A stretch of DNA of 64,000 nucleotides, taken from the NCBI RefSeq assembly GCF_003334305.1, contig NZ_QOWS01000013.1; one strand, written 5' to 3'. Source of the DNA: Escherichia coli. GTDB lineage: Bacteria > Pseudomonadota > Gammaproteobacteria > Enterobacterales > Enterobacteriaceae. Shown here piece by piece: positions 59,704 through 64,000 of this stretch. Both the position numbers and the translations under genes were made by a program. Within the stretch, counting starts at the first letter, position 1, and each line of letters opens with the position of its first letter. The notes below the pieces were generated by a model. It saw only the letters and a list, made by a program, of their open reading frames with translations. It was not told the origin of the DNA and ran no database searches.

Positions 59704-60795
59704 TTACCGCACGATGACGGTAATGGTGGCTGTGCCCTGAAATTTTCCTGTTTCCAGCTCACCACCGACCAGATTAACTGGCCAGGCGCGCATATTGACG
59801 GTGCCATGCCCGGAAGGATCAACGGGAAGGATACCGTTCTGAAAAGGAATATTTGCAACTCCGCCGCCGAGATTTTCAATACGAATACCGACATCGGGCA
59901 CATTGTCTGAACTTCTTCGCCTGGCGACCAGGTTGTACTGGTCTACTACCCCAGTTGTACCGTCGATGCGCATTTGCAACGAGTTTTTAATCTTTGAAGT
60001 ATCACCACAGTCATAAGTGATATCAAAGTCTACTGGAGTAAAACCGTCTGGCATGGCATTGCGGGTGGTAAACTTCTGACCATTGATGAATCCAAAATTA
60101 ACCTTAATAACATCGCCCTGATTAATTTTGCACGACTGTGGGGCGGTGAGATTTCCCTGAATCGATAACTTGACTAAATCATGGAAGTCACCTGTAGACG
60201 GGCTTCCCATTCCATCGACCCACGCGCCTTTAATGACGGCAATATCCGTTTTCGGAATGGTCATCGAGCCGAGAAATGGCTTGGTGACATACAGGGTAAA
60301 GGTGGTGTTCGCACCAATATTAACGGGTCCATAACGAGACGTATCACCCTGGCAAACACCCGTTTGGGTTGCAGCAGAATATACCGTGTTGTTTTTTATC
60401 TGTGTGAATCGGGTGTTAACAGAGACAACCTGGTCGGTTGTGAGTCCTGGAATGTCGTTTGCCTGTAATGTGGTTTTAATATCCAGGCTGTCATTGAGTT
60501 TGTAATATCCTGTCTGATGTCCAGTGGTGGTAAGTACGGGGCTGACCATATAGACAAGTTTAACTGCCTTACCCGCAGAGCAGGAACAGGCGTATTGCCA
60601 GTTAGTGCTACTTAGCGTTGCAGAGGTAAACTCCCGTCCTGTCACGTTATCTGTCTGGTTCACCGTAACATCATCAACCACACTGCTGTAATTTGTCGCA
60701 CCGCTAGTGCTGTCAGCGCCACACCCTCCTGAGGAGGCATAAGCGCAGGATGTGGATATCAACAAAAGTCCTGTTATAAGAGGCGCTCTTTTCAT
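59704..60795 (-). CDS. yraK: Putative fimbrial adhesin-like subunit YraK, 363 aa
   Basis: Start at the internal Met MKRAPLITGLLLISTSCAYA (signal peptide); the ORF track extends 86 codons upstream into yraJ. Confidence 0.85.
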   Translation of the reverse strand: MKRAPLITGLLLISTSCAYASSGGCGADSTSGATNYSSVVDDVTVNQTDNVTGREFTSATLSSTNWQYACSCSAGKAVKLVYMVSPVLTTTGHQTGYYKLNDSLDIKTTLQANDIPGLTTDQVVSVNTRFTQIKNNTVYSAATQTGVCQGDTSRYGPVNIGANTTFTLYVTKPFLGSMTIPKTDIAVIKGAWVDGMGSPSTGDFHDLVKLSIQGNLTAPQSCKINQGDVIKVNFGFINGQKFTTRNAMPDGFTPVDFDITYDCGDTSKIKNSLQMRIDGTTGVVDQYNLVARRRSSDNVPDVGIRIENLGGGVANIPFQNGILPVDPSGHGTVNMRAWPVNLVGGELETGKFQGTATITVIVR

Positions 60796-60805
60796 TTTTT
60801 TATCC

Positions 60806-63322
60806 TTAATGGCACTGCGCCGTGCCTTGTAATACAGAGGTTGTTGGTTCTGAATCCGGTGTACTAAAAGCAAACTGACATTGTTGATCTGCCTGATTTC
60901 CCCAGCGTACAGTCCAGCTTTGTGATTTACTCGATATCCCAGAGAGATATAGTATGCCGCCCTCATCGACGATACTTTGTTGCCCCGTCTCATCGTTGCT
61001 GGCAAGAGCGCCAAAGGGCAACGGTTTACCGTTGCGATCGCTGACTGTAACAAGTACGCGATAACCGATATTGGCGTTGAAACGCGCCGCTACCATTGCA
61101 CCTCTGTTGGGCACCACAAACTGTGTTGTTTGTTCAAGATCGACGTTATCGGGCAGCTGCGTAGTATCTACCGAGAGACGGTTTTCCTGGTAAGTCGTGA
61201 GATAAGGAACCACTGCATAGCCAAAGGGATCAGTAGCAATCCCCGGATAGTTTTGTATCCTCACGCCAGAAGCCCCATTAGCATCGATAAGCGCAAAAGC
61301 GTTGCCCAGATATTGCGAGAGCGTCACGCCATGAGGATGGATAACCACGCCGCCGGTAACGCCGTAATTGTATTGGCTGCTGTCATTACCGTAGCTGTAT
61401 CCGGCACTGAAGGTGCCATAAGGTGAACGGTAACTGGCGTTCAGGCTACTGTTATGGTTGTTATCGTCATCCAGACTTTGTTCCAGGCTATAGCTCAGGC
61501 GACCATCATCCAGCAGTGAGCCATCAAGACGCATTTCATGTTGGGTTGGGCGATCTTTCTGGCTGGTCATCTGATAGGAAACCCGGCTACGCGGTAACCA
61601 GCGTTCTAACGGAATACTGAGATTCAAAGAGAGTGCACGGTCATTATTTTCATCAGTGTAGCGGCTGTATTGATAATTCAGGCTGTAACCAATTCCCCAT
61701 TGCTGGCCGGAAACCCCAACAGAGATATTCCTGTTTTTCTCGTTATTGCCCCAATAGTCTTGCTGCGAACCGGAGGCATACAGACTTACCCCATCAAATA
61801 TTGTCTGGCTGATGTTGAATTGAATTTCACTTTTTTGGCGACTGTTATAGTCCCAATTGCGGGTATTGGCTTCATCAAAACTAAAATAGCCATCGTTGGT
61901 ATAGCGATAGTAGCTAACAGCGATATTGGTGTTGGTTTCCGGGATATCTTTGATGTACTGCGTACGCCATTGATAGCCATGAAAAGAGTGCTGGTTATCG
62001 AATTGGGTGTCAGCTCTGTTGATATCCATCGACAACGCGCCCAGTGCGCCAAGTGTGCCGCCGATACCGATCCCCAGCGCATAATAATCTTCAGAACCGA
62101 GCAGGCCGCCATACAGCGTAAAAGTATTATTCAAACCATATATTGCCGTGGCTTCAGCAAATTCTGGTTCCTTGCTATCACTGTTTGCATCAGCGCGATA
62201 GCGTCCAGCGGTCGCGCTATATTTTAGATGCCCAGGTCGCTGCATCATGGGTAATGAAGAATAAGGCTGGATAAAGCGACGTTGTGTACCGTCACTTTCT
62301 TCAATCGTGACTTCTAAATCGCCGCTGTTGGAAGAGGGGTAGAGATCGTTAATTTCAAAGGCACCCGCTGGCACGTTGCTTTGATAGATCACATAACCAT
62401 TTTGCCTGATAGTCACGATTGCACTACTGTTTGCGATACCGCGTACCGTTGGGGCAAATCCGCGCTGGCTGTTTGGCAACATATTATCGTCGGAAGCGAG
62501 TTGCACGCCAGTAAAGGTGTAGCTGGAAAAAATACTGCCGCTGGTGGCGCTTTCTCCCAGAAGCAACTGAGACTTCAACGCCTTGATATCACGTTGTAAA
62601 TAACTACTGATAGTGTTCCAGCTTGACGCCTGATCGTTGCGTGTCCACGTAGAATAGTTACGTAATCGCCAGGGGCCAAAATTAGCACCATTTTGCATAT
62701 TCAGGTACTGTCGTTGGCTACGATTGCCCTGGCGGTAACGGTTATCAGAACCTGTAAACGAGTAGTTGGTAAACAGCGTTGGTATACCATCGTCCCAACG
62801 AGAAGGGGAGACGTAACCTCTTGCATCACGGTACAGTGCAATTTGGGGAATGCTCAAATTAAGTCGCTGATGATTGAAATCAAATTCAGCAGCTGTACCG
62901 GGAATGATTTGTTCAAGCGAGTTGATCACGCTATCGTCATCTTTTTCAGCCAGCGCCGGGATTTCATCCACCTTAATACCCAGCTCACGTAGTTGTTCTA
63001 CCGTAAACTGTGGCTGCAGAAGTTGCTCTGCATTGGCGGTAAATGTAATTTTTTTCTGTGAAACCTTCTTTTTATTCAGCCAGATATCAACCTGATAAGT
63101 TCCTGGTAGTTGTGCGTATTTTTTTGAAAAACGTGACAGATCAGTTGTTTGCATACCACTTTTTGTAGTTTCCAGCATAATGGGGTCGAAATAATACTCT
63201 TCGGCGTTAGCGGTAGTGCAAAGCATGCCGCTGCCAGTGAGCACCATCGGCAAACAGCGTTTGATGATGAGCGCCAACTGTTTCGGTGTGCGTTTATGTC
63301 CCTGGTGGTGTCGTTGTGGCAT
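60806..63322 (-). CDS. yraJ: Outer-membrane fimbrial usher YraJ, 838 aa
   Basis: FimD/PapC-like usher length and translation; sits between the chaperone and adhesin genes. Confidence 0.93.
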   Translation of the reverse strand: MPQRHHQGHKRTPKQLALIIKRCLPMVLTGSGMLCTTANAEEYYFDPIMLETTKSGMQTTDLSRFSKKYAQLPGTYQVDIWLNKKKVSQKKITFTANAEQLLQPQFTVEQLRELGIKVDEIPALAEKDDDSVINSLEQIIPGTAAEFDFNHQRLNLSIPQIALYRDARGYVSPSRWDDGIPTLFTNYSFTGSDNRYRQGNRSQRQYLNMQNGANFGPWRLRNYSTWTRNDQASSWNTISSYLQRDIKALKSQLLLGESATSGSIFSSYTFTGVQLASDDNMLPNSQRGFAPTVRGIANSSAIVTIRQNGYVIYQSNVPAGAFEINDLYPSSNSGDLEVTIEESDGTQRRFIQPYSSLPMMQRPGHLKYSATAGRYRADANSDSKEPEFAEATAIYGLNNTFTLYGGLLGSEDYYALGIGIGGTLGALGALSMDINRADTQFDNQHSFHGYQWRTQYIKDIPETNTNIAVSYYRYTNDGYFSFDEANTRNWDYNSRQKSEIQFNISQTIFDGVSLYASGSQQDYWGNNEKNRNISVGVSGQQWGIGYSLNYQYSRYTDENNDRALSLNLSIPLERWLPRSRVSYQMTSQKDRPTQHEMRLDGSLLDDGRLSYSLEQSLDDDNNHNSSLNASYRSPYGTFSAGYSYGNDSSQYNYGVTGGVVIHPHGVTLSQYLGNAFALIDANGASGVRIQNYPGIATDPFGYAVVPYLTTYQENRLSVDTTQLPDNVDLEQTTQFVVPNRGAMVAARFNANIGYRVLVTVSDRNGKPLPFGALASNDETGQQSIVDEGGILYLSGISSKSQSWTVRWGNQADQQCQFAFSTPDSEPTTSVLQGTAQCH

Positions 63323-63351
63323 TCCCTGATGACCTGTGTTTTTTATATTTG

Positions 63352-64000
63352 TTATTGCAGTGGACGAGTTTCTGTCCCGGAACTGCCGCCATAATCATTG
63401 ATTGCAGCCCATTTCACGTTCTTTCCGCCAGATGCAGGAAGTGGTAACTGTTTATGTTCTCCGGGCGCGATATATTCAATTTTGCTTGTGAGATCGGTTT
63501 TATCGACTGCCAGTCCGGCAAATACGACGTAATATTCAGTTGGGTTATATATATTGAGTGAATGGTCACTACGTTTAAATTCCAGTGATGTCCACGCATC
63601 GTTTACCCGTCCCTTCAGGTGTGCGGGGCGATAAAACATTTTGATCCGTGTTTTAAATACCAGCGTCAACTCGTTAGCATTAACATCATCTGATTTTTTC
63701 TTTGCTGGAATGGCACGAACATTAATGTAGAACAGCGACTCTTTATTTTCAGGCAGGTTATCAGCTGTTTTAATAATTCGCAGTGATGAGTCATCGCCAG
63801 CTTCAAGACGAAATAGCGGTGGGGTTATAATAAATGGGGCACGGCTTGTACCATCTATATTATCTACCCATGATTGCAGTAAATAAGGCGTTTCTGCGCC
63901 TTTGTTTGCGACAGGTAACGCAGCCTCTTTGCGGCTGGCATCATAGATCACTCGCGTTCGCTGTAAAACGATACCCCCTGCAAGCGCCTGGCCGATACAG
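63352..64000 (-). CDS. yraI: Periplasmic fimbrial chaperone YraI (PapD-like), N-terminus beyond window end
   Basis: Reading frame continues open to position 64000 (…[26 protein letters not shown]); the Met shown by the ORF track at 63951 is really an internal GTG-encoded Val. Confidence 0.88.

Follow-up and report, generated by a model that had tools for sequence, protein, structure and literature searches.

The yraHIJK chaperone-usher fimbrial locus beside rsmI in an Escherichia coli strain: gene content, variability and comparison with known fimbrial systems

Introduction

Among the 12 chaperone-usher operons of Escherichia coli K-12 is yraHIJK (PMC8174762). According to Korea et al. 2010, as cited in that paper, yra is cryptic (silent) in K-12 but functional when expressed, and adhesion to bladder cells upon its expression is mentioned in the summary of the same work in PMC12711010. 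The ligand of the Yra fimbriae is described in these accounts as poorly defined (Korea et al. 2010, cited in PMC8174762 and PMC12711010). The architecture, patchy distribution and cryptic status of yraHIJK have already been described in published work, and the operon is reported to have been acquired by the E/B1/A lineage (PMC6896753).

Two further systems serve as points of reference. The literature regards Yra and Lpf as different fimbrial types, and adhesiomeR has a gene set for each (PMC11184843). The UshC-type operon of EPEC E2348/69 and ST131 is described as encoding the closest E. coli usher relative of YraJ; UshC-type operons and YraJ are reported to be mutually exclusive across E. coli lineages, and the adhesins of the YraJ group resemble LpfD or CupB6 (Stubenrauch et al. 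2017, PMC5717340).

The locus analysed here lies at the end of a 64,000-nucleotide stretch of E. coli DNA (the window). The strain is not K-12; it shares 99.0% nucleotide identity with K-12 strains over 4.4 kb. Between strain H15 and the window there are 10 nt differences in 64 kb and none over 59600-64000 (100% identity), where the RefSeq labels of H15 are yraK, yraJ, yraI and, just beyond the window end, yraH.

Results and Discussion

The end of the window very probably represents the distal three-quarters of E. coli yraHIJK, a gamma-type (FimD/LpfC-like) chaperone-usher fimbrial system. The following features were recognised:

59672 to 59697, no strand assigned: hairpin in the 42-nt spacer between rsmI and yraK, terminator-like for converging transcripts by its match to the consensus (10-bp stem GCGTTGCGTT / AACGCAACGT, then a T-rich tail on the plus strand)
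59704 to 60795, minus strand: yraK, two-domain fimbrial adhesin of the tip-adhesin class, 363 aa, complete (open reading frame; RefSeq "yraK fimbrial protein" WP_000816992.1 in the identical H15 sequence; Pfam; LpfD 5AFO; Foldseek)
60806 to 63322, minus strand: yraJ, outer-membrane usher, 838 aa, complete (Pfam; phmmer to FimD and PapC structures; RefSeq yraJ)
63352 to 64000, minus strand: yraI, PapD-like chaperone of the periplasm, truncated at the window edge (Pfam PapD_N and PapD_C; phmmer to FimC)

Domain matches and the H15 RefSeq annotation confirm the earlier note, which had named a chaperone (yraI), an usher (yraJ) and an adhesin-like subunit (yraK) next to rsmI, with yraI truncated by the window edge: the first 47 nt of this 696-nt gene are missing. 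Its statement that the genes follow rsmI is right as to adjacency, but they do not read on from rsmI: all three lie on the minus strand and converge on it. The completeness of the operon cannot be judged from the window alone, because it includes neither the promoter nor yraH and lacks the first 16 codons of yraI. In H15 the full yraI gene is present, and yraH (585 nt, annotated as a fimbrial protein, the major subunit) is found 80 nt upstream of it, beyond the window end; the major shaft subunit at the operon head is thus seen in the H15 sequence rather than in the window. The four genes are flanked by agaI upstream and by the convergent rsmI downstream.

Scans for regulatory sites gave a single well-placed candidate, the hairpin between rsmI and yraK, which may function as a terminator. 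Terminator-like sites showed no enrichment (6 in the region versus 4.8 expected from shuffled sequence), and promoter-like sites inside it numbered 3 versus 7.4 expected from shuffling. Plus-strand ORFs of at least 50 aa within yraJ and yraK (e.g. 61670-62227) were taken as spurious, as they overlap strongly supported genes and coincide with no annotated gene.

The Pfam search proposed in the earlier note matched all the families in question, including the usher and chaperone domains on which the identification had been staked. YraJ contains the N-terminal, barrel/plug and C-terminal domains of an usher: PapC_N (aa 44-190, 2.1e-45), Usher (aa 206-748, 1.3e-216, covering positions 1-549 of the 549 in the model) and PapC_C (aa 757-822, 5.7e-19). 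In phmmer searches it matched FimD structures with E=5e-176 and PapC with 1e-89.

YraI matched PapD_N (8.1e-41) and PapD_C (8.8e-12), and the 16 codons beyond the window end correspond to its signal peptide. The alignment with FimC (E=2e-42, phmmer) is almost gap-free and the cleft pair is kept, Arg8 and Lys112 of FimC corresponding to R16 and K120 of the translated YraI fragment. Against FimC, the F1-G1 region shows just one gap, of one residue, which, judged on the alignment rather than on a structure, indicates a short loop (FGS); the match to the long-loop chaperone Caf1M was much weaker (2.6e-22 versus 2e-42). Chaperones with a short F1-G1 loop assemble pili, rod-like or fibrillar in form, that carry an adhesin at the tip.

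The start of yraK required correction. The 449-aa ORF produced by mechanical listing is an artefact that begins at an upstream TTG inside yraJ, while the true initiation codon is the ATG at 60795, which is preceded by AAGGA and agrees with the N-termini of 30 homologues. The resulting protein is divided as follows:

60736 to 60795, minus strand: signal peptide, aa 1-20, MKRAPLITGLLLISTSCAYA (read from the sequence; the cleavage site is an estimate made without a prediction tool)
60181 to 60735, minus strand: N-terminal domain, about aa 21-205, putatively receptor-binding (lectin-like), aligning with the LpfD N-terminal domain (boundary near aa 205 approximate)
59707 to 60180, minus strand: C-terminal pilin domain, about aa 206-363 (Pfam PF00419 Fimbrial at aa 211-362, E=1.4e-30)

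The putative lectin-like domain of YraK is therefore N-terminal, and not C-terminal as the earlier note had it, for aa 211-362 are occupied by the Pfam Fimbrial domain. As expected of a pilin subunit, the C-terminal domain combines PF00419 with the cysteine pair of its conserved disulfide, Cys222-Cys263, which is invariant in 31 homologues. Cys25, Cys70, Cys72 and Cys148 of the N-terminal domain are likewise invariant in this set, and this domain matched no Pfam family, the FimH lectin domain included. It is also the most divergent part of the protein: between genera its identity is 42-45% versus 59-63% for the pilin domain, and 10 of the 13 residues that vary among E. coli alleles fall within it.

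By sequence, the closest solved structure to YraK is LpfD (5AFO; E=1e-11 over aa 45-360). The AF2 model of YraK (pLDDT 82, with aa 1-18 below 50) gave LpfD (1.8e-19), CupB6, CsuE, FimH, PapG, FocH and CfaE as the best Foldseek matches, and the top 21 matches were all chains of two-domain tip adhesins. Its pilin part matches FimA, FimG and PapA (TM normalised to the target 0.6-0.72). TM-scores computed over the whole chain are low for the solved adhesins (0.25-0.46), probably owing to domain orientation, and the fold assignment of the modelled N-terminal domain would hold at class level only. Pfam, whose pilin match is confined to the C-terminal half, the LpfD alignment and Foldseek agree on a putative N-terminal binding domain followed by a C-terminal pilin domain without an N-terminal extension of its own, a layout that matches LpfD, FimH and PapG.

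Comparison with genomes devoid of yra placed the genes within a variable segment of 5,484 bp, of which the window holds the larger part:

59658 to 64000, no strand assigned: window part of the segment carrying yraHIJK (about 1.1 kb more lies beyond the window end)

Homology to the yra-minus genomes ends after window position 59657, 4 nt short of the rsmI end, and restarts inside the 3' end of agaI (locus L001, 10543). In those genomes agaI abuts rsmI, with 99 unrelated bp in place of the segment; a search of this filler and the yra segment for repeats or homology, as traces of deletion or insertion, returned chance matches of 9-13 nt only. The yraK gene is present in 3,522 of 5,426 complete E. 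coli genomes (about 65%), and the remaining genomes (about 35%) cleanly lack the segment.

The lower GC content ascribed to the operon in the earlier note was borne out (46.8% overall versus 53.4% from rsmI to dolP); in 500-nt windows the values are 44-49% across the genes versus 52-57% on the lpoA side. The 399-bp region upstream of yraH, outside the window, has only 26% GC. The lower-GC segment, the very AT-rich promoter region and the lineage-limited presence together fit acquisition by gene transfer and H-NS-type silencing of the kind that the literature reports for K-12. The silencing in K-12 is consistent with the sequence, the grounds being the literature and the 26% GC composition.

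Independent disruptions were found in several lineages: an IS1203 insertion in yraJ, an IS1203 insertion together with a deletion in yraK, an IS1-associated deletion removing yraH and most of yraI, and a yraK frameshift. Moreover, yraK is covered to less than 80% in 338 of the 3,522 genomes that carry it, and the 241 yraK places in excess of records reflect split genes. Being missing from about 35% of genomes and disabled independently several times, the operon is dispensable. Together with the reported silence in K-12 (Korea et al. 2010, in the citing paper named above), these losses might suggest that the cluster is a decaying relic without current function, whose genes are intact here because too little time has passed to break them. 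We consider this improbable. All three ORFs are undisrupted here, as they are in most of the strains sampled, and dN/dS is far below 1 and close to that of core genes. Nei-Gojobori pairwise estimates from the eleven sampled loci gave 0.07-0.25 for the four yra genes (0.07 for yraJ, 0.15 for yraK, the latter from 9 full-length alleles, a small sample) and 0.04-0.11 for neighbouring core genes, so that the yra genes lie within that range or somewhat above it. Citrobacter, Klebsiella, Kluyvera and E. whittamii have retained homologous operons of four genes. Function upon expression has been reported (Korea et al. 2010, as summarised in PMC12711010), and yraH, yraI and yraJ appear in a differential-expression table of HUS versus non-HUS STEC with values of 1.93-2.45 (PMC6033998). 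The yra operon of this strain is intact and under purifying selection.

Diversifying selection on yraK across strains, which the earlier note had proposed to look for, gave no signal in the pairwise comparison of the 9 alleles (dN/dS 0.16 for the N-terminal and 0.12 for the pilin domain); given this sample and method, site-specific selection may still act on YraK.

The site beside rsmI was seen in four states: the E. coli yra operon, a yra variant of 82% nucleotide identity likewise beside rsmI (L013), the E. whittamii operon (L016), and empty. In E. whittamii the operon proteins are only 50-66% identical, while rsmI and lpoA are 96-97% identical. A possible, if rather doubtful, explanation is that the site is a long-lived "fimbrial slot" of Escherichia, in which recombination via the conserved flanking sequences exchanges divergent chaperone-usher operons, and also the adhesin gene alone. 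The window itself shows a K-12-like patch of rsmI and yraK set in a B1-like background. If the slot reading holds, an operon that is "cryptic" in the laboratory would continue to be selected in nature for its receptor specificity.

Beyond correct annotation the significance of the locus is small. The N-terminal position of the specificity domain of YraK indicates where studies of ligand or selection should look, and the rsmI-side locus, which is present, absent, IS-disrupted or replaced across Escherichia, could be used as a modest example for studying how adhesins turn over.

Proposed assembly of Yra fimbriae

The steps outlined here are taken from the established chaperone-usher pathway. The fimbrial subunits would be exported by Sec, after which donor-strand complementation by YraI would make up for their incomplete Ig fold, the subunit C-terminus being held by the conserved Arg/Lys pair of the chaperone. 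The N-terminal domain of YraJ would take up the chaperone-subunit complexes, and the usher would polymerise the subunits by donor-strand exchange and extrude the fibre through its barrel. YraK is expected to enter first and hence to sit at the fibre tip, where the N-terminal domain, of about 185 aa, would bind the receptor and the pilin domain at the C-terminus would provide the link to the YraH shaft.

Comparison with known fimbrial systems

The locus shares its gene set, order and neighbours with K-12 yraHIJK (b3142-b3145), and it bears both marks of Yra fimbriae: its sequence is nearly that of the K-12 genes, and it lies between agaI and rsmI. The K-12 operon has four genes, whereas the window holds three, one of them truncated. 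The YraK protein is the same as that of K-12 (WP_000816992.1; K-12 strain EC600), but the YraJ and YraI alleles differ from those of EC600. Compared with K-12 the allele is mosaic, with K-12-like rsmI and yraK (3 nt differences each), whereas yraI, yraH, agaI and lpoA match B1-type strains.

Lpf (LpfABCD) has in common with Yra a simple operon order of major subunit, chaperone, usher and two-domain adhesin. Among solved structures LpfD comes closest to YraK across both domains, in sequence and in fold, and the best NCBIfam models are LpfD for YraK and LpfB for YraI, LpfC being second-best for YraJ. This likeness might be taken to mean that yra is the orthologue of lpfABCD, with the same receptor specificity, a reading to which we give almost no credence. 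All the equivalog cut-offs were missed by far, which argues against membership (75.6 bits versus 412 for LpfD, 738.5 versus 1271 for LpfC, 190.5 versus 360 for LpfB), and orthology was rejected on this ground. LpfD and YraK share only about 19% identity when aligned by structure, conservation is lowest in the N-terminal domain, the one that sets specificity, and the literature separates Yra from Lpf (PMC11184843). As every NCBIfam match falls under its curated cut-off, neither a curated equivalog name nor the Lpf ligand can be transferred to Yra.

Resemblance to type 1 fimbriae extends to the chaperone, in which Arg8, Lys112 and the G1-strand hydrophobic residues of FimC are kept, to the usher, which aligns with FimD from end to end, and to the adhesin, in which the domain order of FimH recurs (lectin domain N-terminal, pilin domain C-terminal). 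In contrast to the type 1 system, yra has four genes, without FimF/FimG-type adaptor genes or adjoining recombinase genes of the fimB/fimE type, and the N-terminal domain of YraK is larger than that of FimH.

The UshC-type operon is likened to yra through its published description. The LpfD- or CupB6-like adhesins reported for the UshC/YraJ group (PMC5717340) agree with the Foldseek matches of YraK found in this study.

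Gene organization of the yra operon

The earlier note assigned 59704-64000 to a yraI-yraJ-yraK fimbrial operon. The three genes lie in tandem on the minus strand and converge on rsmI:

58801-59661, plus strand: rsmI, convergent with yraK
59704-60795, minus strand: yraK, 363 aa
60806-63322, minus strand: yraJ, 838 aa
63352 to window end, minus strand: yraI, truncated

The 42-nt spacer between rsmI and yraK contains a hairpin with a 10-bp stem. Translation of yraK begins at the ATG at 60795, which has AAGGA ahead of it; RefSeq and the N-termini of 30 homologues agree with this start. 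A 449-aa version from a mechanical ORF list, starting at a TTG inside yraJ, was rejected.

The sequence of 59600-64000 is 100% identical to that of E. coli H15, with which the entire 64-kb window is collinear, with 10 differing positions. In H15, yraI extends 47 nt past the window end, in agreement with the truncation noted earlier, and is preceded by yraH (the major subunit gene), then by 399 bp of upstream sequence and by agaI. Of the four operon genes, the window thus contains yraK and yraJ in full and yraI in part, and the promoter lies outside it.

The remainder of the window (1-59700) carries core genes only: arcB, the rpoN-ptsN cluster, lpt, mla, murA, ftsH, the nusA-infB operon, pnp, deaD, ubiTUV and dolP-diaA-yraN-lpoA. 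The yraN and lpoA genes overlap by 43 nt (56701-56743), as they do in the RefSeq annotation.

Chaperone, usher and adhesin

The proposed usher, chaperone and adhesin-like identities were borne out, as the Pfam usher, PapD_N/PapD_C and Fimbrial families were all matched. YraJ has all three usher domains, i.e. PapC_N (2.1e-45), Usher (1.3e-216, full model) and PapC_C (5.7e-19), and FimD structures match it end to end (5e-176). YraI contains PapD_N (8.1e-41) and PapD_C (8.8e-12) and aligns with FimC (2e-42). Arg8 and Lys112 of FimC are the chaperone-cleft residues that grip the subunit C-terminus; in the alignment their equivalents are kept in YraI, whose loop ahead of the G1 strand is short, like that of FimC and unlike that of Caf1M.

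In YraK, Fimbrial is the sole Pfam domain (aa 211-362), and by sequence the protein can be related to one solved structure only, LpfD (5AFO), the adhesin of long polar fimbriae, which aligns over both domains (aa 45-360, E=1e-11). The AlphaFold2 model, for which 31 homologues were used, is all-beta (mean pLDDT 82.4). The top Foldseek match of this model in the PDB was again LpfD (1.8e-19), followed by the two-domain tip adhesins CupB6, CsuE, FimH, PapG, FocH and CfaE, while the C-terminal half is matched by the single-domain pilins FimA, FimG and PapA, and part of the chain by F17-G lectin domains. Whole-chain TM-scores were low (0.25-0.46), as would result from two domains hinged differently. 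Taken together, the position of the Fimbrial domain, the LpfD alignment and the fold matches show that YraK consists of a signal peptide, a putative N-terminal receptor-binding domain of ~185 aa and a C-terminal pilin domain. The lectin-like region had been placed at the C-terminus, which is instead the pilin half. Apart from minor corrections, the original observation is confirmed and its interpretation supported.

Across the 31 homologues, Cys 25, 70, 72 and 148 of the N-domain are invariant and the rest of this domain is variable. Relative to the Citrobacter and Escherichia whittamii homologues, identity is 42-45% in the N-domain and 59-63% in the pilin domain.

The following assembly steps derive from the established chaperone-usher mechanism. 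Fimbrial subunits would be exported by Sec, and YraI would provide the missing Ig-fold strand of each. YraJ would take in the chaperone-subunit complexes and link the subunits by donor-strand exchange. YraK is predicted to be the first subunit only, located at the tip, because a whole domain replaces its N-terminal extension, and the shaft would be built of YraH.

Selection on the operon

Pairwise Nei-Gojobori dN/dS values for eleven loci picked down the similarity ranking

yraJ: 0.07
yraK: 0.15
yraK N-domain: 0.16
yraK pilin domain: 0.12
yraI: 0.24
yraH: 0.25
lpoA: 0.085
rsmI: 0.04
agaI: 0.11

The suggestion of diversifying selection in the lectin-like region of YraK found no support in this sample (0.16 in the N-domain, 0.12 in the pilin domain). 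The N-domain holds 10 of the 13 variable YraK residues, but its synonymous diversity is likewise higher, and we therefore see no sign of diversifying selection on YraK in these eleven loci, a small sample whose averaged estimates would miss selection confined to a few sites. The intact operon is under purifying selection, yet it is dispensable.

Disrupted copies

IS1203, an IS629-like element, lies within yraJ in the O157:H7 strain PV15-279 and, together with an internal deletion, in yraK of the O157:H7 strain 4276 (the stretches concerned are 6303-10132 of comparison locus L004 and 5201-7250 of L006). The yraK search gave 241 more places than records, which represent split yraK genes. Machine learning found 41-43 yraK 'features' predictive of O157:H7 clinical outcome (PMC12711010); IS insertion polymorphism may underlie them.

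In USMARC-51688, IS1A (IS1; L008 8849-9874) stands where yraH, the greater part of yraI and the aga genes as far as kbaY would otherwise be, so that the operon promoter and the major subunit are gone and yraJ and yraK are intact. In UTAK-10, yraK is frameshifted. The lpoA gene of this strain (L010 2246-4234) is 48 nt shorter, in frame, apparently within a low-complexity Ala/Pro/Gln-rich linker, and its dolP is annotated as frameshifted, which may reflect assembly quality rather than biology.

Presence/absence polymorphism and mosaic structure

The lower GC content noted earlier is evident (46.8% for the operon versus 53.4% from rsmI to dolP), and the region upstream of yraH has 26% GC. Among 5,426 complete genomes of E. 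coli, 3,443 match the 4.4-kb query over at least 80% of its length, 3,522 have at least part of yraK, and 3,184 have 80% or more of it. The remaining genomes mostly match only the first 58 nt of the query (the rsmI end). In one of those lacking the segment, Ecol_448, agaI immediately adjoins rsmI.

Homology to yra-minus genomes ends after 59657, 4 nt short of the rsmI end, and restarts within the agaI 3' end. The segment is thus a polymorphism of 5,484 bp (L001, yra-plus, 5059-10542; window end point 59657/59658), to which 99 unrelated bp with their own hairpin correspond in yra-minus genomes (L002 8059-8157). As the segment cuts into the final codons of rsmI on one side and of agaI on the other, the C-termini of both products differ between the two states: RsmI ends in ...EQQG or ...EQQGE, and agaI has 756 or 768 nt. 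This distribution fits the inferred gain of yra by the E/B1/A lineage (PMC6896753) and the patchy occurrence of YraJ (PMC5717340).

The allele is a mosaic: rsmI is 3 nt from K-12 versus 8 from the O26/B1-type, and yraK 3 versus 29, whereas yraI, yraH, agaI and lpoA are 0-6 nt from B1-type strains versus 9-30 from K-12. The K-12-like part (~58800-61300) covers rsmI, yraK and the 3' part of yraJ, as against 61300-64000 and 56700-58740. It looks like a ~2.5-kb recombination patch placing a K-12-type adhesin gene in a B1-like background.

Relatives and comparison with known systems

Outside E. coli, YraK homologue identity falls from at least 82% to at most 53%, the sole close exception being a 95% cluster ascribed to Salmonella enterica by source label only. 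Homologues occur in Citrobacter, Klebsiella oxytoca, Klebsiella huaxiensis, Kluyvera, Salmonella, E. whittamii and Ewingella, and each one examined closes an operon of four genes arranged as in yraHIJK. Judging by Pfam domains, the Citrobacter operon is apparently flanked by hcaT- and hcaR-like genes. The four-gene E. whittamii operon (L016, GCA_012207325.1, 3098-8068) occupies the E. coli yra position, convergent with rsmI; its proteins are 50-66% identical to Yra, versus 96-97% for rsmI and lpoA, and, in contrast to E. coli yra, its GC content (52.9%) matches that of the flanking DNA. Upstream of the operon, a galactarate-dehydratase-like gene (by Pfam domains) stands in place of agaI. A yraHIJK variant with 82% nucleotide identity (proteins 78-88%), followed by convergent rsmI, fills most of a 5.8-kb Logan contig (SRR28869349; L013 565-5780) and may come from another Escherichia lineage.

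The top NCBIfam models were LpfD for YraK and LpfB for YraI, with LpfC second for YraJ, all scores being far under the curated equivalog cut-offs. LpfD- or CupB6-like adhesins were previously described for the YraJ group (PMC5717340). MG1655 has 12 chaperone-usher operons, yraHIJK among them (PMC8174762); the same paper cites Korea et al. 2010 under a title containing 'cryptic but functional', and another citing paper credits that study with bladder-cell adhesion (PMC12711010). The operon is already known, and nothing beyond published knowledge was found. The system resembles Lpf and Fim but is Yra, not Lpf: K-12 strains are 99.0% identical to it in nucleotides, the same genes flank it, and the YraK protein is identical to that of K-12 EC600 and of REL606.
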